Virus record (IMG/VR): IMGVR_UViG_3300021387_000091
Span: 69,979 to 133,978 of that record
Source of the DNA: a virus
Taxonomy: Duplodnaviria; Heunggongvirae; Uroviricota; Caudoviricetes
DNA: 64,000 nucleotides
Strand: one strand, 5' to 3'
Under the pieces are notes generated by a model. It had not been told where the DNA came from and searched no databases. It worked only from the letters and a program-made list of their open reading frames with translations. Both the position numbers and the translations under genes were made by a program. This document shows, piece by piece, positions 1-34,158 of this stretch (within the stretch, counting starts at the first letter, position 1; each line of letters begins with the position of its first letter).

Positions 1-630
1 CAACTTACATTTACAGCAGATAATTGCAACCGTTCGGCTAAAACACCAATATCTGTGCCAATTCCATATTCTTCCGTGTATTTATATTTTGCCATAATAG
101 GCGTTGCTTCTTGAAGCCATAATTCGGATGTAGAATAAATACAATTAGTATATGTAATTAAATCAGAATTACCATGTCTATCAGCTTGTACAAAATAAGA
201 AACATCACAGAAAAAATCAATATTATCTGCTGCTGCATCTGCACCTAAAAATCCAATTTCTTCTTCTGTTGTAAAACATACTTTAAGATCTGGAATTTCT
301 TTTAACAATTGTAGTGCAACACAGATACCATTTACATCATCCATACCAAGGCCTATTTGTTTGCCATTAACAGGGTTTTTACCAAATATTTTACCATTTT
401 TAATTTTTACAGCCTTGTTAGCATGTGGTTTGACACAATCTGTATGTGCAACAACACATGGATAATAATCAGGATTTGTTGTATTCTTTGTTATAAATAT
501 ATTAGAATAAGAATCCATTGAAAACTCAAGATCACCTATTTTATAGCATTCATTAATTATTGCAGATAACATAGGCCATTCTTGTTTAGATGGATGATCT
601 ATTACTAATAATCTCTTAAGTAAATTTAAA
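1..630 (-). CDS. M42/M20-family metallopeptidase-like protein (N-terminal part; gene runs off window start)
   Basis: Uninterrupted minus-strand frame from ATG at 630 to window edge; motifs HTD, GMDDxxG, EEEIGFLGA resemble M42 aminopeptidase metal-binding motifs. Confidence 0.5.
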
Positions 631-631
631 T

Positions 632-2512
632 CTAGTTTCATAATGATAATTGTTGACAATTTAATTTGTCAATAATTTTATAAACTTCGTGTATATAATA
701 TTGATAATTTATATGGCGTTCTGAAATATCTTTATTATCAAATGTATTGTATAATGTTACAGCAGAATCCGAACACAAATTTGTAATTCTTTCTCTAACA
801 TCACCGTTTAACTTATATTTCATTAATCTTTTTCCATTAGTAGACATATAATATCTATTAATGTGTCTAACTTCTTGACCTCCATATTCTACGTGAAAAT
901 CTTTAGCGACCTTTTGAAATGTGCAAAATTTCAGAATATCATTACAAGATTTAATTGTAATTTCAGGATCAATATCCTCAACAAAATATTTATTTAGAGC
1001 CTCCGGAATTATTAAAGGCGCTAAACCCTTTCCAAGTTGAGGTTCATCAATAAACATTCCTTTCTTTTTTATAAGATTAGGATTCTTAGATTCACTTCAA
1101 CCCTTTTTTACGCCAATATAATCATTAATTGCATATTGATAAAACCGTTCAAATTCCTCACGTTCCAATTCCAATCCGGTGAGTTTTTCTCACCAATCTT
1201 TTACTTCATTTACTTTTGGAATTAAAGATTTATTTATTGTATAACACAATCCATCTGTATTTGATTGAACAATTTTACCACCAGCAAGAGCAATGCTTTC
1301 TGCGTACATTAATAATAGTAATTGACCATTAATTCTAATTCTTAAGACCGCTTTTGGATCATATACTCAAGAGAATTCAGATTGAAGATTTCCGGTTAAA
1401 CCATTAATTGCAAGTTTTAGTGTTTCATTCTTTAATTTATTACCGCTTCTCTTGGCTTCAATTCTTTCATCACGAATGTTTTTATAAATTCTAACAAAAG
1501 CTTCGCCCAAATGTTGCGGGAATATGTTATTCTGAATAATAATTGACGGATATAGCGACGCAACATCGTCGTCAAATATCGCAATATCATCATCAGCTTT
1601 AAATATTTCTGGAACATTAACACTATGCAATCCACCCATTCCAAATGTGTGTTCAACACCATTTAAAAAGAATTTTCTTTCAAAAGAATTATCGTTTGGA
1701 TCGGCGCAATGTTGTTTTAAATCATCAAGAAGTTGTTTTAATTCTGGAGTTTTAAATTCAATGTATGGAAATATAATTTCTCCAAAACACAAATTATCAC
1801 AAGGGCTTCTTAAATCTTTAATTTGATTTCATGTTAATCCTGTTTCTTTAAGATATCTATCTTTAAGAATTTCCATTCCAAGATTAACTCCATCTTTATT
1901 CATTACATCTATACCATATTCTTCTTCAATTGCAATTCTTAAATCAATGTCCTTTTTACATCTAGTTAAGAATTCTTCAGTACTTTCAACATCATTAAGA
2001 TTATATGCGTTTTCTTTATCAATATCTGACTCTGGCAATGGTGCATCAAAATCACCATCATATTCTTCAACATTTTTATAATTCATTGTTACTTGAAGTG
2101 CTTTTAAACTAGGTCTTAGTTTTTTAGACCATTTCATAGCCAATAAATCTAAATCATTATAAAGATTTGCATATTTATATTTACTTCAAGAAGCAGATGT
2201 TGTTGAATTAATAATTAAATCACTAAACTGTTTAAGCTCCATTGTTATTACTCAAACAGGTTTAGTAATTAAGCGTTTATAATTAATTAAAATATAAGAT
2301 ATAATTGGTTTATCATAATGTAAACTATTATAACCTACAAAATATATATCTTTTCATAAAAACAATCTTGCTATTTTCGGCATATCGTTTCTTCGATTAG
2401 ATATTTCGTATGTAGCATGATTACCAGATTCAGTATTTTTAATAGTAACACTAAAATAATTTACAAATACTTCAATATCATATACAAACGCTGGTAAATT
2501 TTTAATCAGCAT
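632..2512 (-). CDS. polB: Family B DNA polymerase, read through 8 in-frame TGA codons
   Basis: ORFs 638-1057, 1367-1792, 1829-2143 plus upstream segment share one frame and are separated only by TGA (2354, 2252, 2186, 1829, 1367, 1190, 1097, 638); YDIEVF (Exo I), FVGYNSLHYD (Exo II), DxxSLYPSII (motif A), NTDG (motif C); ATG 2510-2512, TAG stop 632-634. Confidence 0.8.
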
Positions 2513-3338
2513 TTAAACTTATACCCTTTTGTGATGCTACTAATTCTAGTTTCTCTTTAAGAGATTCCCACTTTTGTATATGATATTCTAGATCTTGATC
2601 CAAAAGAAGTAAAATCTTATCTCGAAGCAAAGTAATAACATCAGTAGTCATAGTAGAGAACTTTGGACGGCTCTCTATTCTTAGAAGAGAACGAAACTCT
2701 CCATATGTTAAACCTTTAGAGTTAAAATGAATTTCTACATTAGGATTAAGAAAAAGACGCTCTTTAATAACATCTTTCCTATTTCTAAATTTTCCATTTG
2801 CGTCATAATCGGTTAAATCTTTTTTCTCTTGATCTGTCAGTCATATTCCAAGAGAAAGAATAAATTTATCAGATAATAGCTTTTTATTAAATGCAGGTAG
2901 TGCATCCAAACAAGCTGAAAGCAAATAATCAATTGTGATTCTTCCATACCCTTCTGATAATCCAGAAAAAATCTTTGAAACAGGATCAGAATTACTAATA
3001 TTATTTGCTTGCTTATGAGCACTTATATAATCGAGCAGATCTTTATTTGTTTTAAGACCCTCAACATTACAATCATATAAAATATGACGAAGTAACAATT
3101 CTGTGTTTGCACAATCCCACATTTTTCTTACTTGGTCACGCTTTCTTTGTACGCCAGGATGATAAGGATCTTTATTATTAAGCATTTCCAACACATGAGA
3201 ATATGCATGCTGAAGTTGTTCTGGAGTTAAATCCATCATTCGCACTTCTTTCCCATTTGACATTTTTCATACCCAACGATTAATATCGTTTTCCCTATCA
3301 TCAAACGCTTTAGTTAATTTATCTGCTAAATCACTCAT
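2502..3338 (-). CDS. hypothetical protein (2 in-frame TGA)
   Basis: ORF 2841-3263 extends through TGA at 3267 and 2841; ATG 3336-3338, TAA 2502-2504. Confidence 0.5.
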
Positions 3339-3341
3339 AAT

Positions 3342-3653
3342 CTAAAAATTAAAATCTTTTTTGTTTATTATTTGTTGTTGTTTTATAAAATTAATTAGGT
3401 AACATACAGTATAGTTATATATTTCCTTACTACCCGTAGACGGTTTATAATAACATTCGCCTGCATTTACATATTCACATTCAATATATCCAGTATCACC
3501 AATTTGTGGTTTATCGCAGTTTCAATTTGGAGCTAAGGTTGTGGTAATATATCTTAGCAGGCTATTATTTTGTTCATCTAAATTCTTAAATACATATATT
3601 GTATATTGACCTGGTTGTATGGCTACTACTTCTCCAAAGTATGTTGTTCGCAT
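3342..3653 (-). CDS. hypothetical small protein (1 in-frame TGA)
   Basis: Manual translation from ATG 3651-3653 to TAG 3342-3344; absent from track because of TGA. Confidence 0.3.
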
Positions 3654-4138
3654 AACGTTAATACATCGGCATTGTTTTTAACGGCCGCTAGTGCTCTACA
3701 ACATATATGATCAATAGTATCCAACTTTTTTAAAAGATAATGGAAGTTATACCAATCTTTATCTCCAAAAGCAATATCAATTAAACTTATTAACTTACTT
3801 TCAAAGGTATCTTCCATATCAGATAGCATTTTAAACGGAGTTACTGTGTCATCAAAAGATATAATTCCGGGAATAGTAAATTCTGGAACAGCGGCACTAT
3901 TTTTTATTAATTGTTCAATTAAACAATGCTTTATTTCTTCGCAGGATTTATATAAAGTTTTAAAAAACTTTTTATTGTTAATTAAACCATTTTCACAAAA
4001 ATAGAATTTAGCCGAACTAATTAAAGCTAATTTATCTATTTCAAACTGAATTAAATCTATAAAACCTTTATAAAGGCTTAATGACATTTTTCCTTGTTCG
4101 TTGCTTTGTTCTTCTTGGTTGGTCTTGAATTTCATCAT
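3626..4138 (-). CDS. hypothetical protein
   Basis: ORF track 3626-4141; ATG at 4136-4138, TAG stop. Confidence 0.55.
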   Translation of the reverse strand: MMKFKTNQEEQSNEQGKMSLSLYKGFIDLIQFEIDKLALISSAKFYFCENGLINNKKFFKTLYKSCEEIKHCLIEQLIKNSAAVPEFTIPGIISFDDTVTPFKMLSDMEDTFESKLISLIDIAFGDKDWYNFHYLLKKLDTIDHICCRALAAVKNNADVLTLCEQHTLEK

Positions 4139-4263
4139 CAAGTTGCATTATTGTAAAATATGAACCATTTTTAGAATAGTTAAATTTACGTACAATTTTA
4201 TCTGATTCAAACTCTTTTGAGTCAACTAGATGATAATACTTTAATCCATCTACCTTATCTCAT

Positions 4264-4701
4264 TTATATTGTTCAATTACGTATTTCAATTATATAATAA
4301 GTTTTATGAAAATTAGTATTATATTGACGTTCTATTAAACTATACATATCATCTGAAATTGAAAATTCATGATCTCTAACCATAAATCTTATTTCAAGAC
4401 TATCAGAAGTTGTAAAATATTTTAATAAATCATCATCGTTTATAAATATAGTATTATCATAAACTATACTGTAAACTTCATTTAGTTCTATTTCTAATTC
4501 ACCTCGTTTATAAGTATCGTATAAATCAAATACTTTACAAAGTTTATCATTAAATGCAATATCCTCTGGATCTAAATGATCTAAATCAGCATACCATTTA
4601 TTTCCAAGTCGTTTTGCTTTAATTCTATAGTCCATATATCTTTTGGTAAATTGTAACACTGTGCTGCAAATGTACATCATTTGTCAGCTTCCTCGTTTCA
4701 T
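4264..4701 (-). CDS. hypothetical protein (TGA-containing)
   Basis: ORF 4273-4680 extended through TGA at 4684 and 4273; TAA stop 4264-4266. Confidence 0.45.
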
Positions 4702-5026
4702 CTATTATTATTATGACCTTTTACTCACTGCATTGTAACATTATGTTTTGATAATAATTCAACTAACTCAAATCATAAATCTAAGTTTTTCTTAGTTAAA
4801 TCATTATTTTTTATTCAAGATTCAGCAGAACCTGTAACAATGCTTTGAACCACATATTGAGAATCGGAAATAATTGTTAAGTTGCATCTTTCTTTAAAAT
4901 ATTTTAAAGTTTCAATTACAGCTTTTATTTCCATTCTATTATTTGTTGTATCGGTCATACCCTGATAAAGTCTAGCAATTACATTTTCATTTTCATCTAA
5001 AATGATGCTTGCTCAACCTCCAGCAT

Positions 5027-5389
5027 TTAAACTTGCTTGATAGGATCCATCTGTATAGCAAATAAATCTTTGCATTGTTCTGTAAGATATTGTATAATAT
5101 AACAAAAAGCCTCTTGATCCGATTTATCCAATCCAACATCTTCCATTAGATCAAATGTAGCATGACACAATTCATGAACCAAAACACTAACATCAGAACC
5201 AGATTGCATTCAAATTCAAGAAGTACAACAATAATGCATACAAATAGCATCTGTAATATCTGGATTAAATGTTGCTTCATCTAATCCTTCTATATCTTTT
5301 AAATAATCTTGAAATTCATATGGATCTCCTATCAAAATATAAACAGATTGTCTATAAATTGGAATTTTAATTTCGTGAATCAGTAACAT
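5027..5389 (-). CDS. SprT/Wss1-like zinc metalloprotease (HExxH), 2 in-frame TGA
   Basis: ORF 5027-5209 contains HELCH motif; frame continues upstream through TGA 5210 and 5216 to ATG 5387-5389. Confidence 0.45.
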
Positions 5390-5603
5390 CTGCTTTTTGG
5401 TAATCTACATATGGTGCAAGTTGATACGCTGTAAATTGTCCAAATAATTCTCCTTTATTAGAATCTATTGCTTTATTAATTAACTCAAACAATTCATCAG
5501 GATTTTCAGTTTCAATATATCCTTTTAAACTAACTTGATACACCGTAAATTCGTTTTGTTTCATTTTCAAATATTTCACTAACATATTTTTGTGAAATAT
5601 CAT
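5367..5603 (-). CDS. hypothetical protein
   Basis: ORF track; TAA stop; overlaps neighbours in other frames. Confidence 0.35.
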   Translation of the reverse strand: MIFHKNMLVKYLKMKQNEFTVYQVSLKGYIETENPDELFELINKAIDSNKGELFGQFTAYQLAPYVDYQKADVTDSRN

Positions 5604-5889
5604 GAATCTCTTGCATATTGGAAATTTCTACAGTTGCGTATGGTTTCTTAAGAGCTCTTGCCATTGCAATTTTTTGTCCAATTTTCTTTACATACTGATC
5701 TTTATGAGAACAAGTGGCAAAACCAATAGATAGTTTAGTTCCATCAAGAATTGTACAAATTATAACCCTTGGAAGATTTTTAACAAAACTAGAACCTGGA
5801 AACTTATATAGTATGTTTCCATTTACATCTGAAACAAAGTATCCGGATCTAATTTGCTGAGGAGCAGAATAATAATATTTAATTCCCAT
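5530..5889 (-). CDS. hypothetical protein
   Basis: ORF track; ATG 5887-5889; TAG stop. Confidence 0.5.
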   Translation of the reverse strand: MGIKYYYSAPQQIRSGYFVSDVNGNILYKFPGSSFVKNLPRVIICTILDGTKLSIGFATCSHKDQYVKKIGQKIAMARALKKPYATVEISNMQEIHDISQKYVSEIFENETKRIYGVSS

Positions 5890-6274
5890 CTTTAAATAAT
5901 TTTTTATAAAATTTTAATATTAGATAAATAACAAAAGTCATGATTAAGCTTTCAATAATAAAACCTAATCCGATAAGACATCCAAGTGATGCTAGACACC
6001 ACATTAATATAGCGGTAGTTATATTAGCAATTTTATCTGAGTCTCTTTTAAACATCAAACCAGCGCCAATAAAACCAACTCCGGAAACAACTTGTGCCAC
6101 AATTCTAGATGGATCGCCACCAACTCTAACTGATATATATGAGAAAATAAAAGCACCAAGCATTATTAGTGTAACAGATCTTACACCAACAATTCCATGT
6201 GTCTTCTGTCTTTCCAATCCAATTAGAATTCCGGATAAAAGTAAAATTAATAAGCTAAATAAAAACTTAACCAT
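5879..6274 (-). CDS. MgtC/SapB-family membrane protein
   Basis: Multi-TM protein with GLERQ...GVRS...GAGLMF pattern typical of MgtC family. Confidence 0.65.
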   Translation of the reverse strand: MVKFLFSLLILLLSGILIGLERQKTHGIVGVRSVTLIMLGAFIFSYISVRVGGDPSRIVAQVVSGVGFIGAGLMFKRDSDKIANITTAILMWCLASLGCLIGLGFIIESLIMTFVIYLILKFYKKLFKDGN

Positions 6275-6278
6275 TTAT

Positions 6279-6980
6279 CTATAAGTCTAAATATAAAACT
6301 GGATACTCAATTTTATAATCTTCATTTAAAACACTAACACAATAAACATCTGTTTTATCGAGAATTTCTTTATTATGATTAGATGAATGAAGATGGCCGT
6401 GAATATTTATTTTTGGAGATTTTTCTAAAATAGCATCTCTTAAAGCAACATTTCCAATATGTTCAGGATTTCTTCCCCATTTAGTCCAATCAAAACACAT
6501 ATCCGATGTACCATATGGCGCATCATGTGTTAATAATATGTCACAATCTTTAGGAATATAAGAATAAAGTTTATTTAAATTTTCTTGGTCTTTCATAAAA
6601 GCCCAATTTCCAAATATCTTACACCACGGTGTACCGTAAATAGTAATGCCGTTAAAATTATATAATGAATCCTCTAAATAAATAGTCCTATTATTTGTTT
6701 TATCTTGAATATATTTTGCTATTTCAAATCGTCCATCTTCAAGTTTTTGCCATCCAACTTCATGATTACCAGCTATCCATAAAACAACACTGTTTTCGTC
6801 TTTATATGGTAAAGAATTGACCCAATCAACAAAAGTTGTAATATACCATGACATTGTATCATGTTGATTCCGCTGATAATTTAAATCAACATTATCTCCA
6901 GCAACTAATAATAAATCAAAAGATTCCTTTATCTCTGGCAATAAACCGTGACTATCCGAAAATGCAGCCAATTTAATCAT
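6279..6980 (-). CDS. calcineurin-like metallophosphoesterase
   Basis: DSHG, GDNVD, GNHE motifs. Confidence 0.75.
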   Translation of the reverse strand: MIKLAAFSDSHGLLPEIKESFDLLLVAGDNVDLNYQRNQHDTMSWYITTFVDWVNSLPYKDENSVVLWIAGNHEVGWQKLEDGRFEIAKYIQDKTNNRTIYLEDSLYNFNGITIYGTPWCKIFGNWAFMKDQENLNKLYSYIPKDCDILLTHDAPYGTSDMCFDWTKWGRNPEHIGNVALRDAILEKSPKINIHGHLHSSNHNKEILDKTDVYCVSVLNEDYKIEYPVLYLDL

Positions 6981-8565
6981 ATTGTTTAAATATATCTTTT
7001 TCTATAACAACACAATTTGTAGAAATAAACATGTTTAAAACACTAATAGCATTTTCAAAAGCAAGTCTATCAGCTTTTGTTGGATTTATAATTCCACTTT
7101 TTAAGAAATCTACATATTTTTCTGAATTAGCATCCCAAGAAATATTATCTTTAGGAAATACATTTTTTCCAATTTCTTTAGGATCAAATCCAGCATTTGT
7201 TACAATTGTATCAAATATAGATGTTAATGCTAAATTTACAATATCAATACCTTGTTGTTCTCCTTCTGATTCTGACTTTGGCATATCTAGAAATGCTTTC
7301 ATAAAAGTTAAGCCACCACCAGGAACAATTCCTTCTTCTAGTGCAGCTTTTGTAGCACAAACAGCATCATCAATACGATCTTTCTTTTCTCGCATTTCTA
7401 ATTCTGATGTTGCTCCAACTTTAATAACACCTATTCCGCCAACTAATCTTGCAATTCGTTCTTTATAATACTTTTGCAAAGTTTCTTCACTATCTTGAAG
7501 TTTAGAAAGAAGTCCTTTTAATTCTAAAACTCTAGCCTTAATTATATCAACAGTACCATTACCATGTAATAGAGTTGTTGTATCTTTTGTAACTACAACT
7601 TTACCACACAAACCTAACATATCTCCTGTTACTTTAGATAACTCAATACCATTATCATAAGTTGCTAATTTAGCTCCAGTTAAAATTGCAATATCTTCTA
7701 ATATACCTTTTCTATAATCTCCAAATGAAGGGGCTTTAACAAGACAACATTTAATATTACCCTGAATATGATTTAATCTCATATTCTGAATAACTTCGTC
7801 GTCATAATCTTGTGCAATAATTAGTAATGGTTTGTTATTTTTTGCCGCATATTCGGCGGCGGGAATAATTTCTCTAGTAAGCTGAACTTTTTGATCTGTA
7901 ACAAGAATTAAACAATTTTCTAAAACAGATTCAGACTTATTTCTATCTGTTATAAACCAATGTGAAACAAATCCTCTTTCAAATTGCATACCGTTTATAA
8001 TATCAATAGTTGTCTGATTGTTAGCTGATTCTTCAACTGTTATAATTCCATCCAATCCAATCTTCTTAAAAGCAGATGCAACTAATTCTCCAATTTCAGA
8101 ATCTCCATTTGCAGAAATAGTAGCAATTTTTGAAACATCAGATTCATTAATAGGAATAGACGATTCATTAATTGTTTTATTAACAAAATCTTCCGCTATT
8201 TTAATTCCTCTTTTCAAATCTGATATATTTTTGATACCAGATTTATATTTAGCGTAAGCCTGTTCAACCATACTAAATGCTAATACAGTTGAAGTGGTTG
8301 TAGCATCACCAACAGATCTAACTGTATTTAATGCTGCTTGCCTTAGTAATGTAGCACCAACATTTTCATATTTATCTTCAAGAAAAATATTCTTTGCAAC
8401 AGTAACTCCATCTTTTGTTACATGAGGAAGTCCGTTATTATAATCATCTAATATTACGCATTGACCTTTTGGACCAAGTGTTGAACCAACAGCTTTTGCT
8501 AATATAGACATACCTTTTAATAAACTTCCTTTTGCAGAACTATCAAACTTTAACTCTTTTGCCAT
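6973..8565 (-). CDS. groL: chaperonin GroEL (Cpn60)
   Basis: 530 aa; MAKELKFD...GPKG...DGVTVAK N-terminus and overall Cpn60 pattern; no TGA. Confidence 0.9.
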   Translation of the reverse strand: MAKELKFDSSAKGSLLKGMSILAKAVGSTLGPKGQCVILDDYNNGLPHVTKDGVTVAKNIFLEDKYENVGATLLRQAALNTVRSVGDATTTSTVLAFSMVEQAYAKYKSGIKNISDLKRGIKIAEDFVNKTINESSIPINESDVSKIATISANGDSEIGELVASAFKKIGLDGIITVEESANNQTTIDIINGMQFERGFVSHWFITDRNKSESVLENCLILVTDQKVQLTREIIPAAEYAAKNNKPLLIIAQDYDDEVIQNMRLNHIQGNIKCCLVKAPSFGDYRKGILEDIAILTGAKLATYDNGIELSKVTGDMLGLCGKVVVTKDTTTLLHGNGTVDIIKARVLELKGLLSKLQDSEETLQKYYKERIARLVGGIGVIKVGATSELEMREKKDRIDDAVCATKAALEEGIVPGGGLTFMKAFLDMPKSESEGEQQGIDIVNLALTSIFDTIVTNAGFDPKEIGKNVFPKDNISWDANSEKYVDFLKSGIINPTKADRLAFENAISVLNMFISTNCVVIEKDIFKQYD

Positions 8566-9672
8566 TTAAAATCCAATTTTATTTGTTCTCTTTTTCTCTC
8601 CATACTCAGTTTTATCCGCATTATATATTTCAGCAAGAGTCATAGGCTTAATTTCAGTGAGACCTAAATTATATTTTTCATTTAAAGTTTCAACTTTATC
8701 TTTAGTTAACTCTTTAAACTCATACTTTGCATAGCATCTTCCTTTACGAAGTAAAGCTTGGTCAATATCCTTAACGTTTGCATTAAATGTGCAAATAAAT
8801 TTAATATTCATAATATCTGATAGTAAACCATCAGACATATTAAGAATGTTACTAATTGCACCATTAAACATATTAACGCTTCTATCAGTTAATACTTGTT
8901 CGCAGTCTTCAAGAATAAAAACAGAATTTGCATTATCAATCATAAAAGATACAAAATCAGGATCTCCTAATCTACTAGTTAAAGAAGTTGGAACAATTAT
9001 ATAGTTTTTAGGGTATTTATCGCATAAATGTCTCAATAAAGAACTTTTGCCAGTTCCAGGAGAACCATAAAACAATACAAGACCGCTTTCCCTAGAATCT
9101 AGAAACGTAATTAAATCTTTATAAACAGGCATAAAATCATCATTATACGTTTCATTGATATTTATATCAACTTTTTTTATTTTAGATTCTATAGTATAAT
9201 AAGATCCATCCGAATATCCAACAAGATTTGCTGTTGCTTCTTTAGACTCCTTAACTCTTTTAGGCAAACCATCCCATATTTGTTTTAACAGCTCTTCTAT
9301 TTCCGATTCTGTATGTTCTTCTGGAAAATATTTCACAGATATAGAATTAAGATCTATAACAAATATATACTCGTTAGATGTAATAACATTAATAGCAGAA
9401 CCAGAATCGGATATATTTAATGTTGTACCATTAGAATATTCTTGATCTGTAGCACCACCAACAAGACTGTACTTACTTGTTGTTCTCTTAATAAAACTTA
9501 TATCCGGAATTAAACTATACAAAACTTCAGATGTAATTTTTTCTAGATCGCAATGTTTTTCCTCTTCGTTAAAAGTAAGCATTAAAGAATTAGGTACACA
9601 ATTGTACTTAAAAACAAAATATTTAGAAGCAATAAAAACACCGCTTTCAGTGAAACAATCGATTAACTCCAT
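8566..9672 (-). CDS. AAA-family ATPase
   Basis: Walker A GSPGTGKS, Walker B ILEDCE, sensor-2 LLRKGR; immediately upstream of GroEL. Confidence 0.75.
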   Translation of the reverse strand: MELIDCFTESGVFIASKYFVFKYNCVPNSLMLTFNEEEKHCDLEKITSEVLYSLIPDISFIKRTTSKYSLVGGATDQEYSNGTTLNISDSGSAINVITSNEYIFVIDLNSISVKYFPEEHTESEIEELLKQIWDGLPKRVKESKEATANLVGYSDGSYYTIESKIKKVDININETYNDDFMPVYKDLITFLDSRESGLVLFYGSPGTGKSSLLRHLCDKYPKNYIIVPTSLTSRLGDPDFVSFMIDNANSVFILEDCEQVLTDRSVNMFNGAISNILNMSDGLLSDIMNIKFICTFNANVKDIDQALLRKGRCYAKYEFKELTKDKVETLNEKYNLGLTEIKPMTLAEIYNADKTEYGEKKRTNKIGF

Positions 9673-9833
9673 AATTTCTTAATATAAATAAATAAACAAA
9701 TCCAGTTTATAATAGGTACTAAACACAATAATGCCATAAACTGCGGATAATTAAAATACCCACGTTTATAACATTCATTCATTAAAATAAATGATAAAAG
9801 CATGGGTATGGTATAAATAAATAATATTTCCAT
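9663..9833 (-). CDS. small membrane protein
   Basis: ORF 9663-9860 trimmed to ATG at 9833 to avoid tRNA-Asp; two hydrophobic segments. Confidence 0.3.
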   Translation of the reverse strand: MEILFIYTIPMLLSFILMNECYKRGYFNYPQFMALLCLVPIINWICLFIYIKKLWS

Positions 9834-9835
9834 AG

Positions 9836-9911
9836 CGGTGTATATGGGATTTGAACCCATGATCTTTAGCGTGACAAGCTAACATCCTAGACCAGACTGA
9901 ACGAATACACC
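9836..9911 (-). tRNA. tRNA-Asp(GTC)
   Basis: Manual cloverleaf: acceptor GGTGTAT/ATACACC, anticodon arm TTAGC-TTGTCAC-GCTAA, T-arm ATGGG-TTCAAAT-CCCAT. Confidence 0.85.
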
Positions 9912-9921
9912 ATCTCTTTCT

Positions 9922-10137
9922 TTATTTCTTGGAAAATAAATACTTATAAAGCTTATATATTCCAAAACCTTCAGCGCAAATATTAACTCCGGCAACCCAA
10001 CCATAAAAACTTCCAATTGCTTTAAGAGCAACAGCGTTTCATACTCCAGCTGCAGAAATAATAGCGACCATAGCTAAAAGTATTAAACTAGCAACTTTAC
10101 CAAACGTAATTAATGTTTCTTTATTAGCTTCAGTCAT
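9922..10137 (-). CDS. small 2-TM protein with charged C-terminus (holin-like), 1 TGA
   Basis: Manual translation MTEANKETLITFGKVASLILLAMVAIISAAGV(W)NAVALKAIGSFYGWVAGV...KLYKYLFSKK. Confidence 0.3.
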
Positions 10138-10209
10138 ATAAAATACAAGTTTAAATTAATCAAATCTCTAAAAATTGTGATTCTATAGAATCAACATCTA
10201 AATTATTAG

Positions 10210-10302
10210 CAGGGGCTGCAGGACTCGAACCCACATATCCGGTTTTGGAGACCGGCGTTGGCGGTTTTGAAGACCGCTGTGTTACCATTACACCAAACCC
10301 CT
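10210..10302 (-). tRNA. suppressor tRNA, anticodon UCA (reads UGA); tRNA-Trp-derived with tandem duplicated anticodon arm
   Basis: 93 nt: AGGGGTT TG GTGT AATGGTA ACAC A GCGGT-CTTCAAA-ACCGC CAACG CCGGT-CTCCAAA-ACCGG ATAT GTGGG-TTCGAGT-CCTGC AGCCCCT G; second hairpin equals E. coli tRNA-Trp anticodon arm (CCA). Confidence 0.8.
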
Positions 10303-10372
10303 ATAAAATGATACTTATTTAAAAATGATCCACAGTCATTCGCGTAAACCATTCCGCCAATTCGCCAAAATG

Positions 10373-10400
10373 TCGGCAAATGTGGGACTCGAACCCACAA
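10373..10400 (-). pseudogene. tRNA 3' fragment (T-arm plus acceptor strand)
   Basis: GTGGGTTCGAGTCCCACATTTGCC has no matching 5' half; near-copy of the suppressor tRNA T-arm. Confidence 0.4.
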
Positions 10401-10434
10401 TTTATTTTAATTTTGTAAGTATCATAAGATTGTT

Positions 10435-10770
10435 TTAATTTATTAATTTACGACGATACGCAATAGTTGTAAATGCTTCATATTCATTTACACTAGGTAT
10501 TATATCTGTATCACTCCAAATCATCATTTCAGAATAAAGTTCATATCCAGCTGTTACTCCAACAAATCCATCTTCTAACATATAAACGTTAGTTGCAACA
10601 GAAAACCATCTATAGCTATGGATGTTTTGGCAATTAGAAACACATTTAATTTCTTCCCAATCATCTGGATACTCTGTAGAAAAAGCATCTTCAAATTCTG
10701 ACAAAGAATTAATGGAATAAAGAGTTAATAAATTCTTGAACTTTTCAATGAATTGATTAATTGATATCAT
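10435..10770 (-). CDS. hypothetical protein
   Basis: ORF track; TAA stop. Confidence 0.55.
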   Translation of the reverse strand: MISINQFIEKFKNLLTLYSINSLSEFEDAFSTEYPDDWEEIKCVSNCQNIHSYRWFSVATNVYMLEDGFVGVTAGYELYSEMMIWSDTDIIPSVNEYEAFTTIAYRRKLIN

Positions 10771-11890
10771 AACGTATTTTTCCTATAAATTCGTTTAAAA
10801 CTTTAGCATTACAATAACTCATTGTAGAACGTATTGCTGCAACAAATTGAGAAGTCCATTCAGAAAGTGTATATTCAATCGGAATCCAATATTCTTTACC
10901 TTCAGAATGTTTTATTTCAGTTTTACCCATTTCTTTTTGGGCACGCTCTGTTGACATTCCATAATACATTCTTCCAGGTTTAAATACATAATCCTTTATT
11001 TCCACAATTCTTGCTAAACGATTTTCACTAGCAGGTGTAAATATACTATTTATGTTTTTAACAGCCTTTTCAATTATTTCTCCAGCAGCTTCTTGTGATT
11101 GAGCAAATATTTTACCACACATTACATAATCTGCACCAATAGCTAAAGCCACAATTATGTCTCTTATAGAATTACAACCGCCATCATATACAATATATGG
11201 TACAGACCTATACTTTCCTAATGGATAAGAATCATACGATTTAGCAACATATTCTTGTCTATATCTTGTTTCTCTTAACATATACAAAGCATTACGTCCA
11301 ATACCAGTTAAATCGTTTGTTGCACAGCCATTACCAGAACCAATCATTATTCGTACATAATCAATACCGGCTTTAGCATATTCATCATATGCTAATGGCT
11401 CCGCAATATTTCCAGCCATAAGAATTAGTTTGTTATCAAATTTATGTTTTGCAAATTTACAAAGTTCAAGTAATTTTTTCATATGTCCATTTGCAATATC
11501 AATACAAATAAAAGTTTCAGATGTTAATGTATCTGTATTAATAGCAAAACATTCAAATTCTTCTAAACCCATTGCAATCCAAACCTGTTCAAATGCAAGT
11601 TTTATTCTAATATCATATGGAACAGTTCTTGGTATTATTGGAGTAATTTTATTTTTACTAAACTCCAAATAATTTTTATCGTTAACAACACATGACATTG
11701 GTGCAGTAAAAAGAGGTAAATGTGCGGAATCTAAATTCCAATCAAGTTTCTCTTTGGACCAAATAGCATTATAATACGGAGAGCATTCAGATCTATGTTC
11801 TATATTAGTTGTTATAGATGGAATTAATTGTATTTCATCAAAATTAGTCAAATACTTCTTCATTTTTATAAATTTTTGTAAAATCATCAA
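10757..11890 (-). CDS. IMPDH/GMP reductase-family protein (GuaC-like, no CBS domain)
   Basis: GIDYVRIMIGSGNGC and DGGCNSIRDIIVALAIGADYVMCG resemble IMPDH/GuaC catalytic-Cys loop and phosphate-binding motif. Confidence 0.7.
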   Translation of the reverse strand: MMILQKFIKMKKYLTNFDEIQLIPSITTNIEHRSECSPYYNAIWSKEKLDWNLDSAHLPLFTAPMSCVVNDKNYLEFSKNKITPIIPRTVPYDIRIKLAFEQVWIAMGLEEFECFAINTDTLTSETFICIDIANGHMKKLLELCKFAKHKFDNKLILMAGNIAEPLAYDEYAKAGIDYVRIMIGSGNGCATNDLTGIGRNALYMLRETRYRQEYVAKSYDSYPLGKYRSVPYIVYDGGCNSIRDIIVALAIGADYVMCGKIFAQSQEAAGEIIEKAVKNINSIFTPASENRLARIVEIKDYVFKPGRMYYGMSTERAQKEMGKTEIKHSEGKEYWIPIEYTLSEWTSQFVAAIRSTMSYCNAKVLNEFIGKIRYDIN

Positions 11891-12035
11891 AAGTTATTAT
11901 GTCTGAAATATCAAGCCAATTTAATTGTTTTGATTTATATGAAGTAACAAATAAATCATTTCCAATAATTTTCTTGATAATATATTTTATATATCCTTCC
12001 TTTGTTGGATAAAAGACAATATCTCCGACTTGCAT
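11844..12035 (-). CDS. hypothetical protein
   Basis: ORF track. Confidence 0.35.
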   Translation of the reverse strand: MQVGDIVFYPTKEGYIKYIIKKIIGNDLFVTSYKSKQLNWLDISDIITFDDFTKIYKNEEVFD

Positions 12036-12319
12036 GGTTTATTTAAAAATAAAACTTTATTATTTTGTACTATAAATGTTTTAGTATTTGGCCTTGTTAT
12101 AATAAACCTAAAATCTAAAAATTCATCGTCTGATAAACGAACTGTTACAATAACATGTTTTTTATTAATATCAAACACCCAGCCTTCTAATAATGATTCG
12201 TCTGAATTTAAAATCCAAACAGTATCTAAAAAATCTAAGTCTGCTAGAGTTTTCTTGGGTTTATCTATTTTATTATACTTCGGCACTATTATTTTTTTAA
12301 GATTATCTAAAAAAGACAT
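11987..12319 (-). CDS. hypothetical protein
   Basis: ORF track. Confidence 0.45.
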   Translation of the reverse strand: MSFLDNLKKIIVPKYNKIDKPKKTLADLDFLDTVWILNSDESLLEGWVFDINKKHVIVTVRLSDDEFLDFRFIITRPNTKTFIVQNNKVLFLNKPCKSEILSFIQQRKDI

Positions 12320-12338
12320 AATTTTTTATTTTAGTTAG

Positions 12339-12411
12339 GGTGTTCTGAGAGAATCGAACTCTCCTATCTAGAGCCACAATCTAGCCGACTAACCGCTATC
12401 GTAAGAACACC
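12339..12411 (-). tRNA. tRNA-His(GTG)
   Basis: G-1:C73 extra pair, anticodon arm CTAGA-TTGTGGC-TCTAG, T-arm GAGAG-TTCGATT-CTCTC. Confidence 0.85.
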
Positions 12412-13032
12412 AGCGTCTATTCTACAAAATAAATAGTAGAATTAATATCTGTAATAAATTATCGATTAGACTTCCAATAATAGTACAAATCTAATCTAAC
12501 CAATCTCAATTTTTCAAGACCATTCTTTTAATGGTTTATCTCCGTTTGCATAATGACAATCTTTAAATTCCATTCCAGATACAATTCCTAATCCAAATAA
12601 AACTGTAAACATAAATCTCAAAGGAATTACTAAAAGAAAATGTTTATATCGAATCAATTGATACTATTTTTTAATCACTCATTTTTTTTATTTATTACAT
12701 TGTAAGTATTCAAATAATTAATCCGAATAATCTCAAAAATCAATTTTCTTTTCTCGATGATTCTTTTTTTCTGGATGTTTTGTTTCTTTTTGTTGTTTTT
12801 TCTTTTTACTACGAACTTTTTCAAAATTAGTCTCGTCTGACATATGTTCTAGTTCGTAAAATGAAACTTTAGGCATTAAAAATTAAAATTAATAAAACGT
12901 AAAAAGACACTGAAAGTCACTTTTACTTACAGGCCACTAATTAACGTGTTAGAACGGAATCAATTTCGTAGACTCACCGGTACGTCCAGCGTACTTTTAA
13001 AATACATGATTTTAGCAGTTAATAAAAGTTAA

Positions 13033-14724: not shown

Positions 14725-15141
14725 TTATAATAAAGTTAAATGTCCAGTTATTTTATCTATTTCTTCTGATATGTATGGTCCAATACAAAGACACGTGTTT
14801 GTTGGTTCTCCATGAAATTCAGTTAGTCCTGAATCTGTTATAAGTTTAACAGGAAGAAAAGCATTTTTTGCTTTCTTATAAATATCAAGGAGTTCTTCCT
14901 CTGAATTTACACCAACACAAATCTTTGTAAATTTACCATTTAGCCAATCATCTAATACAGATTTTTCATTAAAAGAAACACTATATCTATATGATTTTAT
15001 ATCGGAATTATCTTCTTTAATTTGTTCTTTGTTGAATAATAAAAGTAACGCACCAAGTGAAGCGTGTGCTCCTTGCGCAATCATTTTTCCTTTCCTCATC
15101 CCGAGGTCTTTACGCATTACTATTACTTGTTTTGTGTTCAT
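14725..15141 (-). CDS. peptidyl-tRNA hydrolase, PTH2 family
   Basis: GKMIAQGAHAS and DSGLTEF...T.T.L.IGP motifs. Confidence 0.65.
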   Translation of the reverse strand: MNTKQVIVMRKDLGMRKGKMIAQGAHASLGALLLLFNKEQIKEDNSDIKSYRYSVSFNEKSVLDDWLNGKFTKICVGVNSEEELLDIYKKAKNAFLPVKLITDSGLTEFHGEPTNTCLCIGPYISEEIDKITGHLTLL

Positions 15142-17402: not shown

Positions 17403-17906
17403 TTATCTATTTAATATATTTTTAGCTAAAATACAATCTTCATCAGATAATCCACGATAAGAATTTATTTGAACAAAATGTGGTTTTTGTTCTTCTGTAA
17501 AGTCAATTCTATCATCAATAATGACATAATTTTCAACCTCTGGATGCCACTCTAGCCACATTTGGATTTCTTCTCCTCTTGTGAAATGATAACAAGATCC
17601 ATAAGAACCAAATATAGTAATTGGTGTTTTATCAATTATGTATTTTAATCCAGCTCTTTCTAATCTTCTTTGCCAACTGCTATCAATTCTCCAATCAGAA
17701 GATATTACAATCTTTGCATCAGTTTCTTGACACAATCTATTAATTCTTTCTATACAAAGTGGATCTACATCTTCCTCTCCGTTTAAGTTTCCTGGATTCC
17801 TATCATCTATATACCATAAAGTATAATTTAAAACCCCATCCACATCAAGGAAGATAATCTTATTATTTTTCATCGTCAAATAATTCATCAATTGCATTAG
17901 GAACAT
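17403..17906 (-). CDS. HAD-superfamily phosphatase
   Basis: Motif I IIFLDVDGVLN. Confidence 0.6.
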   Translation of the reverse strand: MFLMQLMNYLTMKNNKIIFLDVDGVLNYTLWYIDDRNPGNLNGEEDVDPLCIERINRLCQETDAKIVISSDWRIDSSWQRRLERAGLKYIIDKTPITIFGSYGSCYHFTRGEEIQMWLEWHPEVENYVIIDDRIDFTEEQKPHFVQINSYRGLSDEDCILAKNILNR

Positions 17907-18385: not shown

Positions 18386-19402
18386 TTATGGTAATGTGGT
18401 CAACCAGTTTTCAAACTCGAAAGCTTTAATAGGAATATTAAGTGTAGAAACTTTATTAAGTAATTCCTGATTTAATTTATATCCATGACTAAATACAATA
18501 GTACGATCAACATTGTAAGAATAGATAGAATCAATTGTTATAGAATGTTTTAATAACTCTATATCAAATTCAAACGCTCTAAAACTTTTCTGAAAATCGT
18601 TCCATGGATTATTTTCATCATCGATATTTAAAATAGGTTTTCCACTTAATAATGGGCCATTACCATGTCTTGTAATATACGGTCTACAAACATAATTTAC
18701 TGTAATATCATCATTTCTATTAAGTTTTGATATTATTTCAATTGCATTTTTAGATGTTGTATTACTTGGTGTACACCAAGGCATAACACCATGTATTTGA
18801 TCAAGTAATATACCTTGAGATCCCTCAAATATAACATTCTGAAAATTATTTAAATAATCTAAATGATAAATTTGAAATTTATTAGCCATTAAATGAACCT
18901 CTTCAATCCAATCATTTAAATTATTCATTGGTGTTTTAGAATCCAAATGATAATAATTTTCAGCAATACTATAAACTTTCTCTCTTAATACATGAATGTT
19001 TTGTGCATCTACAATTCGTACAGAATATCCATTTTTAATCCTATCCAATGTAGATTTAAACCCAGTTCCTACCGTACCATGTTTTCTGTTATTTTCATTA
19101 TTCCATTGACTAATAACATCAAATGGTGTAACTAATTCACAGAACGGAGAGAAAATAATTTTAGGAAGAATTCCAAGTTGCTTTAACTCAATTGCTTCAA
19201 GAAATAATGTATGTAAATCGCATATACAATACTCAGACCAATAAGTAGGAACATTTTTTAATGTGCCACTTCCAAAATTTCTAAAACAATGTTGTAAATT
19301 ATTATGTTTTACATTATGTCCAACTTGATTTGCACCAGAAAACCTTACAACAATACTATTTTCATCACATAAATTATTAACACATTGTCCCTTTGCTTCC
19401 AA
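18386..19402 (-). CDS. adenylosuccinate synthetase (PurA)-family protein with degenerate P-loop; PurZ-like candidate
   Basis: GHNVKHN (cf. GGHNAGHT), GTVGTGFKST (cf. GTTGRGIGPA), FEGSQGILLDQIHGVMPWCTPSNTT (cf. [25 protein letters not shown]); GDEGKGK replaced by LEAKGQC; TTG start. Confidence 0.7.
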   Translation of the reverse strand: MEAKGQCVNNLCDENSIVVRFSGANQVGHNVKHNNLQHCFRNFGSGTLKNVPTYWSEYCICDLHTLFLEAIELKQLGILPKIIFSPFCELVTPFDVISQWNNENNRKHGTVGTGFKSTLDRIKNGYSVRIVDAQNIHVLREKVYSIAENYYHLDSKTPMNNLNDWIEEVHLMANKFQIYHLDYLNNFQNVIFEGSQGILLDQIHGVMPWCTPSNTTSKNAIEIISKLNRNDDITVNYVCRPYITRHGNGPLLSGKPILNIDDENNPWNDFQKSFRAFEFDIELLKHSITIDSIYSYNVDRTIVFSHGYKLNQELLNKVSTLNIPIKAFEFENWLTTLP

Positions 19403-19655
19403 AATTGTTATCCTATAGACTTTTTATTCTATAGTTCTTATACTTCTTTTTTGTATAAGTTCAGCATATATTTTCATCTACTTATTTTAGTTAAGATGGC
19501 GGATACTCGTGGAAGGATTATATTTATTCACCTTCTATGCGTTACAATGTCAAATAGCCTTTCGAAATCTATTTGCTTATCTCGGTATTAACATCACAGT
19601 CTTCACCGATTTTACCCGCTTCGATATATGATTTCTCATATAAAGGACGAAATTC

Positions 19656-20582
19656 TAAATAACGATTGAATTTTCTTTCAAGATATATATTAGAATCTTC
19701 ATAAAGATATTTTACACAATTTCAAGCTTTTCTATCTGTTGCAATTAATACATGTGTTACAGTATTTCCATTTTCTGGATGAAGTAAACGTATATGTTGA
19801 TATCCATTATTAAAATATTCAGCACATTTATTAAGAAAATCTTTTGTTCCAATAATACTCATTTCTATAGCAGAATGATCTGCGTTGGAATAAGTAATAC
19901 ATCCATCTCCATCAAAGTACCCTCTAATAAAATGTCTTATTAAAGCTGGATCTTTAAATATATTTTCATTTGGAAATTTAATAGTTAACGATTTTCTTGG
20001 AGTACAACCATAAGAATTTAATACTTCAACCATATGTTTATTATCAAAAGACATTCTGCAAAGATCTCCTGTTGGTAAACTCTGATACCTCATTTTGTAA
20101 GTATATCCAAGAAAATCCATAAATTTCTGCAAATGTGCTTTATCTTTAATACTAAGATTTACTGTAATTTTTGGTCTAGTAGAATCAATTCCTCCATCTG
20201 CATACAAAAATCCAAGTCAATAAGCTTTTTCTTCTGTATCAATAGAATCAAAAATATTATAATTTATATTGTTAATTCTATCTTTTCTAATTACTTGAAT
20301 GTTTGTTTGTTTTAATCATCTAGCAAGTGTTGCAACACCAACATTTAAAATAGATGATATTTCTTTAAGAGTTTTTCCCTGATTCTTATAAAGATCAATC
20401 ACTGTGTTTATATCTAAACTAATATTTCTTCTTTTTATTTCTACATTATTTAAACGTAAGTAATTCCCAATTGTTTGAGGACTTACTTTTAACTCTGTAG
20501 AAATATCTTTAATTGTTTTTCCAGACTTATAGATTTCTATAACGTTTGCTTTTTGTAAAAATTCAATCATTCGTTTTTGCAT
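19656..20582 (-). CDS. LAGLIDADG homing endonuclease with N-terminal HTH domains (3 in-frame TGA)
   Basis: ORFs 20316-20582 and 19722-20207 share a frame and join through TGA at 20316 and 20217; motifs Y(W)LGFLYADGG and FIRGYFDGDGC; TAG stop at 19656. Confidence 0.65.
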
Positions 20583-21977: not shown

Positions 21978-22049
21978 CTATAAATATTGGAATCGAACCA
22001 ATGTATTAACTACCCAAAAGTTATGTCCAAACCACTAGACGAATTTATA
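21978..22049 (-). tRNA. tRNA-Pro(TGG) second copy with all-A/T acceptor stem
   Basis: TATAAAT TC GTCT...GGAC A TAACT-TTTGGGT-AGTTA ATAC ATTGG-TTCGATT-CCAAT ATTTATA G. Confidence 0.55.
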
Positions 22050-22078: not shown

Positions 22079-22239
22079 TTTGAGGCTCCTCCGGATCCCG
22101 AGACCGGTACTAGGGGTTACAAATCCCTTATTTTACCTGTTAAACTAAAGAGCCGTTAATGATACTTATTTAAACATATAAAGCCATTAATTTTTTTTGT
22201 TTTATAAAGTATTATAAGTATCATAAAATATTATAAAAG

Positions 22240-23469: not shown

Positions 23470-24147
23470 TTATAGTCCAAATTTTTTTCTATATTTTCTT
23501 ATTGTTGCTTCAGAAACATTATATTTTTGTGCGATTCATAAATTGGATCTACCTTGCGCAATATATTGTTTTATATTTTCAACTTCACTATCTCAATCTA
23601 CAATTTTTCGATGTTTTGAAGCACAAGATAAACATAAACCAGAATTTGTTTTAGTTTCTCTTCCACACTCTGAACAATAATATTTTATCTTTTCCGTTTT
23701 ATTCGCATTACCGCAATAATTTTCTGTTTGCGAATGACAATTTGGACATAGCATTTGTAAATTACTTAATTCATTATTTGTTTCGTCTCCATCTATATGA
23801 TGTAGCTGACAAATAATAGGTTTATTTAATCATTCTGTTAATCCACAGCATTCACACTTATTTTGTTTTAATCCAGCATTGATTAATTTTTCTTTAAGTT
23901 TGGAAGATTTTATACAACTTCCATTAATAAGATATTCTTCAACTGATTTACATCTGCTTTTTCCTTTATCTTTAGACACAAATGTAAAATGAGATGTGTC
24001 TAGCCCATATTCTTTTATTTTATTTTTAAGGGTGTCTGAATTTCTACCTCTAACAGGAATTTCAAGTTCACGTAATGTATCTGCATAACAGAAATTATTT
24101 GCCACTGCTTTTTGTATGCGTTCTAAAGATCAATCATATTTTTTCAT
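23470..24147 (-). CDS. HNH homing endonuclease with C-terminal HTH (4 in-frame TGA)
   Basis: ORF 23830-24105 continues through TGA; CECCG...ICQLHHIDGDETNN...LCPNCHS HNH motif; ATG 24145-24147, TAA 23470-23472. Confidence 0.6.
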
Positions 24148-25961: not shown

Positions 25962-26040
25962 TTAATGCTTATTGGAATCGAACCAATTATTTTTGAACCC
26001 TATTCAAATGTTAAAACCATTTAACTAAAGCTAATAAATA
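25962..26040 (-). pseudogene. degenerate tRNA-like element (T-arm identical to tRNA-Pro copy 2; acceptor does not pair)
   Basis: ATTGG-TTCGATT-CCAAT T-arm and TTTGA-ATAGGGT-TCAAA hairpin but only 4 acceptor base pairs. Confidence 0.3.
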
Positions 26041-33768: not shown

Positions 33769-33786
33769 CTTCTTTCTATGTTAGGC

Positions 33787-34032: not shown

Positions 34033-34158
34033 AATTTCTCTTTTAGGCTTTCGTTAGGTTAATAAAAAGGCGCAGCGTTCATTTTCCTTCTTATGTGTTG
34101 CTATGCAAGTTACCACGAATGTAATGTAGAGCCTTTACTTTTCTTCTGCGCCATATGG

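Follow-up and report, generated by a model that had tools for sequence, protein, structure and literature searches.

We analysed a window of 64,000 nucleotides (nt) taken from the IMG/VR virus record IMGVR_UViG_3300021387_000091 (positions 69,979 to 133,978), in which a family-B DNA polymerase gene (polB) and a number of other genes contain in-frame TGA codons and in which a tRNA with a UCA anticodon, tRNA(UCA), is encoded. The GC content of this 64-kb window is ~30%; genes between 0.6 and 57.4 kb are encoded on the minus strand and those between 58 and 63.2 kb on the plus strand, and 18-19 tRNA genes were detected with ARAGORN and Rfam. The polB frame (632-2512, minus strand) is delimited by TAA and TAG and comprises 626 codons, with 8 TGA and 2 TGG codons, a TAG stop and not a single internal TAA or TAG. 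Under the standard code the gene falls into nine pieces of 52, 33, 21, 118, 153, 58, 30, 152 and 1 codons; at the off-frame stop frequency of the window, the probability of 626 codons without TAA or TAG is 1.6e-19. A first-pass annotation of the window had joined polB through eight TGAs into one protein with three polymerase motifs, and the single 626-codon frame indeed holds Exo I (FVYDIEVF), Exo II (VGYNSLHYD) and motif A (DVASLYPS). A Pfam search of the joined protein gave no match at E <= 0.01, and the gene was identified as a polymerase because of these motifs and of tblastn matches to annotated Crassvirales DNA polymerases (43-49% identity). When TGA was read as sense, the number of open reading frames (ORFs) of at least 200 amino acids (aa) in the window rose from 27 to 37, a lengthening that the reading of TGA as a sense codon had predicted, and when TAG was read as sense it rose only from 27 to 28. 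A tRNA scan found neither a tRNA(CUA) nor a tRNA(UUA) in the window and there was no sign of TAG or TAA read-through, in agreement with the earlier statement that TAA and TAG always terminate.

The sequence indicates that the window covers 64 kb of a large crAss-like gut phage of roughly 177 kb, probably a member of the Zeta group. A contig in the European Nucleotide Archive (ERZ12302816 NODE_85, 176,743 bp, from a metagenome assembly) contains the polB region and its flank over 12.5 kb with 0 mismatches, 120 full-length homologs of the polymerase (~627 aa) were found on contigs of up to about 177 kb, and the polB region is syntenic with DnaB, primase and a SNF2-type helicase. We assign the phage to Zeta because the ~177 kb genome, PolB, the low GC content, the tRNA array, the homing endonucleases and the opal suppression all fit the group (PMC7886860, PMC12386605), in which genomes of 145-192 kb carry many tRNA genes and many homing endonucleases, here of the LAGLIDADG and HNH-like types; this placement rests on genome size, polB and the published group description and takes in the genes of the window only, the crAss signature genes (MCP, portal, TerL, gene 75-type, IHF) and the giant RNAP genes being located elsewhere in the genome. 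The opal-suppressing Zeta phages described so far (PMC7886860; Lera and its relatives, PMC12386605) likewise combine ~177 kb, ~30% GC, PolB and a large tRNA array with many homing endonucleases and with TGA read as tryptophan in part of the genome only, polB included. One of them, genome 3075_90106 in Table 1 of PMC12386605 (176,686 bp, 30.5% GC, polB, opal-suppressing), may be the same species as the window phage. A megablast search with positions 600-12600 of the window against the annotated phage collection gave no match, and the nearest annotated relatives were seen at the protein level only. Two GC-richer islands (32000-38000 and 52000-58000, 37-42% GC vs 26-33% elsewhere) stand out in the base composition, and both are TGA-free.

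Homolog alignments of polB and of the lysin placed mainly tryptophan, and not gaps, at the TGA positions, which bears out the earlier reading of these codons as sense. Among the 120 polB homologs, tryptophan was the commonest residue at seven of the eight TGA positions and invariant at three. Since the database proteins may have been translated with table 4, the check was repeated at the DNA level. Three standard-code Suoliviridae polB genes without an in-frame TGA all have TGG as the aligned codon at query positions 109, 228 and 441; two of them also have it at position 625, and aromatic residues are aligned with positions 382 and 472. Three Zeta relatives (L107, L108 and L109; polB 61-70% identical) retain TGA at six tryptophan columns and show TGA/TGG swaps at two. 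In RNase H, two TGAs align with the conserved tryptophan of DLW in solved RNase HI chains and with the tryptophan of WVKGH in E. coli RNase HI (lysine in 3h08). At five of the six lysin TGA positions tryptophan was the commonest aligned residue, and at the sixth it came second to tyrosine; overall, the lysin TGAs align mostly with tryptophan and otherwise with tyrosine or phenylalanine. A phmmer search of the lysin against PDB sequences gave no match, and tblastn against phages gave a single weak match to the SLT domain of Stenotrophomonas phage C121 that was uninformative at the TGA columns. Glycine, the residue expected under code 25, was common at none of the TGA columns of polB, and was seen at one lysin TGA column 3 times vs 18 for tryptophan. 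We conclude that TGA very probably encodes tryptophan, in the lysin and the tail fibre as well as in polB, RNase H and the homing endonucleases.

The first-pass annotation had held that TGA is a sense codon throughout the AT-rich core of this genome. We called 104 ORFs with a codon-usage score and counted tryptophan codons by block, and the claim stood for one set of genes and failed for the other. The recoded set, made up of the left block (632-5389), two homing endonucleases, a plus-strand pair at 51.3-52.1 kb and the right block (57.6-64 kb), contains 17 genes with 52 internal TGA vs 25 TGG codons. The other set, consisting of the genes from 5.5 to 57.4 kb and one TGA-free ORF at 63.3 kb, contains 84 genes (13,180 codons) with 5 internal TGA vs 220 TGG codons (Fisher p = 2.7e-33). 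Regardless of block, 21 of the 104 ORFs contain an internal TGA (4,556 of 17,710 codons). The reassignment is thus block-wise and not a uniform code 4, under which TGA should be the main tryptophan codon in all genes: the description as a code-4-like phage holds in that TGA is read as tryptophan and the phage is recoded, and fails in that the change is not genome-wide. In the same way, the warning of bad fragmentation under standard annotation holds for roughly 20% of the genes, and some three quarters of the window's coding capacity reads alike under both codes.

The standard-code-compatible block (5530-57428, minus strand) holds 84 ORFs and the tRNA array and is interrupted by the two homing-endonuclease genes and the plus-strand RepL-like pair. 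It encodes MgtC, Metallophos phosphoesterases, GroEL, an AAA ATPase, an IMPDH-like protein, a PTH2, a NUDIX protein, a nucleoside deoxyribosyltransferase, HAD_SAK_2, an adenylosuccinate-synthetase-like protein, SPFH, an F420-ligase-like protein, DHH and many small unknown proteins, and no structural gene was recognisable in it. GroEL and its upstream neighbours (the AAA ATPase and the IMPDH-like gene) proved to be TGA-free; proteins encoded next to GroEL had been proposed as test cases for recoding. The code boundary is the gap at 5390-5529, and on the polB side the TGA-bearing genes start ~1.6 kb past GroEL; a scan for sigma-70 promoters and terminators at this 5.4-kb boundary did no better than on shuffled sequences. 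The TGA-free block covers AT-rich and GC-richer parts of the window alike. Five of its ORFs (31059-31370, 36761-37015, 55239-55862, 12718-12876 and 46704-46925, all on the minus strand) carry one TGA 1-12 codons ahead of a TAA or TAG. In each, the TGA is probably the true stop, backed up by the tandem one, and reading through it late in infection would lengthen the product by a few residues only. The same partition is seen in the Zeta relatives L107-L109, with AAA, GroEL, Metallophos and MgtC free of TGA and RNase H, polB, helicase, DnaB and primase rich in it; the replication genes beyond the left edge of the window, in the genome to which it belongs, are TGA-rich as well. Because drift at 30% GC in the presence of a suppressor favours TGA, which makes up 68% of the tryptophan codons in the recoded genes yet only 2% in the 84-gene set, the low share in the latter implies selection against TGA.

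The left recoded block comprises, besides polB, a hypothetical gene of the replication block (2502-3338; 2 TGA and 3 TGG) whose syntenic orthologue in the relatives is TGA-bearing too, RNase HI (4581-5075; Pfam RNase_H, E=2.9e-27; 6 TGA and 1 TGG) and the last TGA-containing gene before the boundary (5027-5389; 2 TGA and 0 TGG), all on the minus strand. Two endonuclease genes, also on the minus strand, lie within the TGA-free block. The first encodes a LAGLIDADG homing endonuclease with N-terminal helix-turn-helix (HTH) domains (3 TGA and 0 TGG); a TGA inside its motif (EKAY-TGA-LGFLYADGG) had been reported correctly, and its ends, formerly given as 19656-20582, are here called at 19569-20570. 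The second (23470-24147; 4 TGA and 0 TGG) encodes an HNH-like endonuclease with a C-terminal HTH, identified by Pfam matches below the cut-off, and relative L108 has an HNH gene (540-1127; 4 TGA and 0 TGG) in a similar kind of position. A third island within the TGA-free block (51324-52131, plus strand) consists of a RepL-like gene with 3 TGAs and a small ORF with one.

At the right-hand side, a small Gly-rich hydrophobic protein (57626-58000, minus strand; 2 TGA) is encoded at the divergence point beside the late block, which continues on the plus strand with a predicted lipoprotein (58060-59055; 5 TGA and 2 TGG), an Mfa-like fimbrillin lipoprotein (59018-59941; Pfam Mfa_like_1, E=4e-26; 2 TGA and 2 TGG), the SLT lysin (60071-61453; 6 TGA and 2 TGG) and a collagen-repeat tail fibre (61456-63207; 6 TGA and 7 TGG). 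The Mfa-like fimbrillin family is associated with Bacteroidota. For the lysin, both the coordinates and the six TGAs given previously were reproduced; its SLT domain is clear, and the N-terminal M15 match (Peptidase_M15_4) falls below the Pfam cut-off. The fibre had been credited with five TGAs and the count is six. A small ORF at the right edge of the window (63684-63980, minus strand) has 4 TGA and 1 TGG codons.

The key mechanistic element, which the first-pass annotation had missed, is the opal-suppressor tRNA(UCA) of 94 nt at 10209-10302 on the minus strand. It was found by ARAGORN, and Rfam scored it at 53.8 bits with UCA aligned as the anticodon. The gene is located in the TGA-free block, on the same strand as the first recoded gene (5027-5389) and about 5 kb upstream of it. 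Its acceptor stem (AGGGGUU...AGCCCCU-G) has A1-U72, G2-C71 to G5-C68 and G73. The bacterial tryptophan identity set consists of G73, A1-U72, G2-C71 / G3-C70 / G4-C69 / G5-C68 and C34-C35-A36 (PMC9976931); the acceptor-stem and G73 part of this set is therefore complete, while the decoding arm has UCA in place of C34-C35-A36 and a CCA loop is present only in an extra arm. The UCA arm (GCGGU-CUUCAAA-ACCGC) is followed by a 5-nt linker and then by a second hairpin in the variable region (CCGGU-CUCCAAA-ACCGG), whose sequence is identical to the anticodon arm of E. coli tRNA-Trp, and over a 15-nt core the two arms differ solely at position 34. The Rfam tRNA model treats the second hairpin as a 23-nt insertion in the variable region, and the minimum-free-energy fold of the tRNA is a five-arm cloverleaf. 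The 3' half (nucleotides 48-94) matches E. coli tRNA-Trp in 5,405 of 5,426 genomes. The phage tRNA thus shares with E. coli tRNA-Trp the acceptor stem, G73, the T-arm and CCGGUCUCCAAAACCGG, and differs from it in keeping the CCA arm and adding a second, UCA arm, which gives the five-arm molecule of 94 nt. It also resembles the classical E. coli opal suppressors, which are tRNA-Trp derivatives with a UCA anticodon and insert tryptophan, and all 13 phage tRNA(UCA) tested in E. coli extract inserted tryptophan (PMC12636597). The label tRNA-SeC(tca) assigned by ARAGORN was ruled out, since a selenocysteine tRNA (tRNA-Sec) has an 8/5 or 9/4 acceptor/T-stem, a 6-bp D stem and a Sec-type variable arm, and the window tRNA has a 7/5 acceptor/T arrangement, a 4-bp D stem and a tryptophan acceptor stem with G73.

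The second hairpin is not peculiar to this phage. In an IMG/VR sample collected with a tRNA(UCA) scan in which nothing but the UCA arm and the sequence of the T-arm was fixed, UCCA was present in the extra-arm loop of 45 of 66 distinct long-variable-arm phage tRNA(UCA) genes, with loops mostly of 7 nt (CUCCAAA, GUCCAAA or UUCCAAC). The remaining 21 have long stems and short loops, as in the variable arms of tRNA-Sec, and lack UCCA. The five loop-adjacent pairs of the extra arm covary strongly: 92% of cells are paired, 67 double-change cells were observed vs 20 +/- 4 in shuffles, the covariation value was reached by none of 500 shuffles, and it fell sharply when the partners were slid. The structure of the arm itself, a conserved second hairpin that copies the tryptophan anticodon arm with the loop N-U-C-C-A-A-N, is solid. 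Many contigs with these tRNA(UCA) genes gain ORF coverage when TGA, and not TAG, is read as sense. As regards analogous arms on TAG suppressors, the same loci contained just two tRNA(CUA) genes, one of them an ordinary tRNA of 77 nt, too few to be informative. The exact dual-arm motif was found on 13 IMG/VR contigs and only once in 185,579 species genomes. That single match lies on a 41.7-kb contig (JAEDHQ010000011.1) of a metagenome-assembled genome named 'Bacilli bacterium', and the contig could be a mis-binned phage contig or a clue to the host.

Several such tRNAs were mislabelled. ARAGORN called two dual-arm genes (L028:1370-1467 and L045:12-109) 'tRNA-???' with a 4-base anticodon, and a gene without the UCCA loop (L071:2905-3002) tRNA-Phe(aaa). 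Only about one third of TGA-recoded phages have a suppressor tRNA that surveys detect, and miscalls of this type could help to explain the shortfall.

Considering the position of the tRNA(UCA) and the distribution of TGA, the phage is very probably written in two styles, with a standard-compatible block that includes the suppressor followed by the recoded genes; we infer the temporal order, the charging by the host tryptophanyl-tRNA synthetase (TrpRS) and the function of the extra arm. Minus-strand transcription would run from ~57 kb to 0.6 kb, reaching the TGA-free block first, then the tRNA(UCA) and then the replication module. The 52-kb accessory/tRNA block, in which tryptophan is TGG and the stops are TAA or TAG, could be translated by host ribosomes from the start of infection. 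The tRNA(UCA), most likely charged with tryptophan by the host TrpRS, would accumulate and outcompete release factor 2 (RF2) at UGA, and would thereby license the genes in which about two thirds of the tryptophan codons have drifted to TGA. These would be the replication module (RNase H and polB and, beyond the window, helicase, DnaB and primase) together with the homing endonucleases, and the late and lysis genes (lipoproteins, lysin and fibre) that diverge on the other strand at 57.5 kb. This order agrees with the published model of early-standard and late-recoded expression (10.1101/2021.08.26.457843; 10.1101/2022.06.29.495998). Because the identity set of TrpRS includes C34-C35-A36 (PMC9976931), we further propose, tentatively and at somewhat less than even chances, that the CUCCAAA hairpin of the extra arm keeps a CCA anticodon that the host TrpRS or another factor specific for tRNA-Trp can see while the UCA arm decodes, a role that may be unreported so far. 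Alternatively, the arm may bind some other factor that recognises tRNA-Trp, for instance an enzyme of tRNA modification or a nuclease for which it acts as a decoy, or it may allow two tRNA folds. A literature search for tRNAs that naturally carry a second anticodon arm or a pseudo-anticodon returned only an engineered version (PMC7590224), and such an absence is not proof of novelty.

A number of observations weigh against this scheme. The terms early and late are drawn from gene content, strand and analogy, and a standard-code host is presumed. The replication genes are recoded here, and published summaries place recoding mostly in structural and lysis genes; a timing switch, if there is one, would lie between the accessory/tRNA block and replication and not between replication and morphogenesis. 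Five internal TGAs persist in the block taken to be standard, three within 8 codons of the chosen start and two at codons 31 and 32, and the three near the start may lie outside the true gene. With regard to the arm, the scan pattern that fixed the UCA arm and the T-arm was biased to Trp-like tRNAs, and the variable arm of class II tRNAs points away from the anticodon, so that geometry is a real difficulty for the use of the extra arm by TrpRS. In addition, relative L108 (polB 67% identical) has an ordinary class I tRNA(UCA) of 72 nt without an extra arm (L108:1135-1206), which implies that the arm is optional for recoding. This tRNA has a different acceptor stem and adjoins an HNH gene of that phage, and suppressor tRNAs appear to be exchanged among closely related Zeta phages.

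We also weighed other explanations of the pattern. The TGA-free block could reflect its origin and not timing, that is, it could be cellular or standard-code phage DNA gained so recently that its codons have not yet drifted, which would suit its many cellular-type accessory genes (GroEL, IMPDH-like, PTH2, NUDIX, MgtC) and the GC-richer islands at 32-38 kb and 52-58 kb. However, TGA is just as absent from the block's AT-rich part (5.5-32 kb, 26-33% GC), and the orthologues in relatives with 61-70% polB identity are still TGA-free beside TGA-rich neighbours, which argues for continuing selection against TGA and not for lack of time; we consider this explanation unlikely. It is less likely still that the phage, and perhaps its host, reads TGA as tryptophan everywhere, as Mycoplasmatales do. 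In-frame TGA aligned with tryptophan in conserved genes, the low GC content of about 30% and the rarity of TGA as a terminal stop would all be expected in that case, yet TGG accounts for 220 of 225 tryptophan codons in 84 genes in spite of that GC content and of the suppressor, the same genes are TGA-free in the relatives, and the phage carries a tRNA(UCA) of its own. True code-4 genomes use TGA for 80-90% of their tryptophan codons (10.1101/2022.06.29.495998). Furthermore, crAss-like phages and the Mfa-like fimbrillin lipoprotein point to standard-code hosts.

Two last explanations are scarcely credible. TGA could encode glycine (code 25) or selenocysteine, as the ARAGORN call tRNA-SeC(tca), the length of 94 nt and the long variable region might suggest, were it not that the aligned residues are tryptophan, tyrosine or phenylalanine and the aligned codons TGG, with glycine, cysteine and selenocysteine unsupported, that the 7/5 acceptor/T arrangement, 4-bp D stem, G73 and tryptophan acceptor stem are unlike tRNA-Sec, and that the sampled tRNA(UCA) genes with Sec-like variable arms form a separate class without the UCCA loop. 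Nor is there any appreciable chance that the interrupted genes are pseudogenes, assembly or sequencing errors or cases of low-level natural read-through without reassignment: the standard code does cut polB into nine pieces and Zeta phages are known for fragmented genes (PMC7886860), but the complete lack of TAA and TAG in 626 codons, the TGAs at the same tryptophan columns in four genomes with synonymous TGA/TGG swaps, the identity over 12.5 kb in a public metagenome assembly and the dedicated tRNA(UCA) all contradict it.

Block-wise recoding of TGA to tryptophan in Zeta crAss-like phages has already been published (Yutin 2021, PMC7886860; Pfennig 2022, 10.1101/2022.06.29.495998; Babkin 2025, PMC12386605), Yutin et al. 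had shown a Zeta polB with TGAs (PMC7886860), and Borges 2021 (10.1101/2021.08.26.457843) proposed recoding as a lysis timer. The recoding itself is therefore known for this phage group, of which the window provides a further, well-resolved case; what may be new is confined to the suppressor tRNA with its pseudo-anticodon. In Lera, the recoded genes are mostly structural and lysis genes, whereas in the window phage the replication module is recoded too, with a sharp boundary at 5.4-5.5 kb; and several Zeta genomes are reported in PMC12386605 to have no detectable suppressor tRNA, whereas the window phage has a clear but atypical one. The picture is sharpened in two respects, as the replication module joins the morphogenesis and lysis genes on the recoded side, and the avoidance of TGA in the accessory/tRNA block is very strong and conserved in relatives. 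As in the dual-coded phages (Mgcod, 10.1101/2022.06.29.495998; Borges, 10.1101/2021.08.26.457843), a block that reads under both codes carries the suppressor upstream of the recoded block, the recoded codons are concentrated in lysis and structural genes, and standard-code hosts are presumed; the window differs from them in having no phage release factor 1 (RF1) or TrpRS 'code-change module' and in that the code switch occurs partly without a strand switch, the TGA-free and replication blocks both lying on the minus strand. In Mycoplasmatales and their relatives, whose genomes are genuinely code 4, UGA is also read as tryptophan by a UCA-anticodon tRNA-Trp, but this is genome-wide and RF2 has been lost, in contrast to ~20% of genes, a phage tRNA and a presumably standard-code host here.

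The closest parallels to the extra arm are engineered tRNAs (Mukai 2020, PMC7590224) and the anticodon-mimic hairpins of mRNAs regulated by aminoacyl-tRNA synthetases, in both of which a hairpin copies the cognate anticodon arm. In the engineered tRNAs, the copy in the variable arm recruits the synthetase independently of the decoding anticodon, and such a pseudo-anticodon arm can enhance aminoacylation (Mukai 2020, PMC7590224). The engineered tRNAs need synthetases fused to an extra anticodon-binding domain and the mimic hairpins are mRNA operators, whereas the arm in the window is natural, phage-encoded, covarying and placed on a stop-codon suppressor. If the proposed role is true, the arm would be an undescribed way to uncouple tRNA identity from decoding; it would offer a concrete answer to a question that the literature regards as open, by what means phages achieve efficient charging of a suppressor by a host synthetase, and it would provide a natural design for orthogonal or stop-codon-reading tRNAs. 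For annotation, neither table 11 nor table 4 in its plain form is what the sequence calls for: table 11 breaks ~20 genes, among them those for polB, the lysin and the fibre, and under table 4 the proteins are correct, save for an extension of at most a few residues on the five genes that seemingly end on TGA.

Some further features of the window are recorded here. Among the hosts predicted in the literature for similar Zeta genomes are Firmicutes (Holdemanella, Faecalibacillus). The tRNA region encodes a PTH2-type peptidyl-tRNA hydrolase (14725-15141, minus strand) and a HAD_SAK_2 (RNA-repair 'Swiss army knife') protein (17403-17873, minus strand), which may be linked to the manipulation of tRNAs and translation during recoding. 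Several tRNA genes on the minus strand are odd (21978-22049, 22083-22154, 25963-26034, 42488-42574 and 52274-52427); they comprise two very AT-rich 'tRNA-Pro' calls (tgg, agg), one tRNA (22083-22154) that Rfam alone detected, at 38.5 bits, a tRNA-Lys extended by 8 nt by Rfam, and a tandem pair of tRNA-Glu(CUC). The adenylosuccinate-synthetase-like ORF (18386-19423, minus strand; Pfam E=7e-32) follows immediately downstream of the LAGLIDADG gene; its match is restricted to the first two thirds of the PurA model, and no GDEGKG P-loop is recognisable in it. The idea that this gene is split by the LAGLIDADG element was dropped, as neither an upstream exon nor the P-loop motif was present in any frame. 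Finally, the products of 35610-36383 and 44607-45293 have N- and C-terminal motifs in common (IPEGYEARIE..., ...NDLQKLL), which suggests that they belong to a paralogous family.

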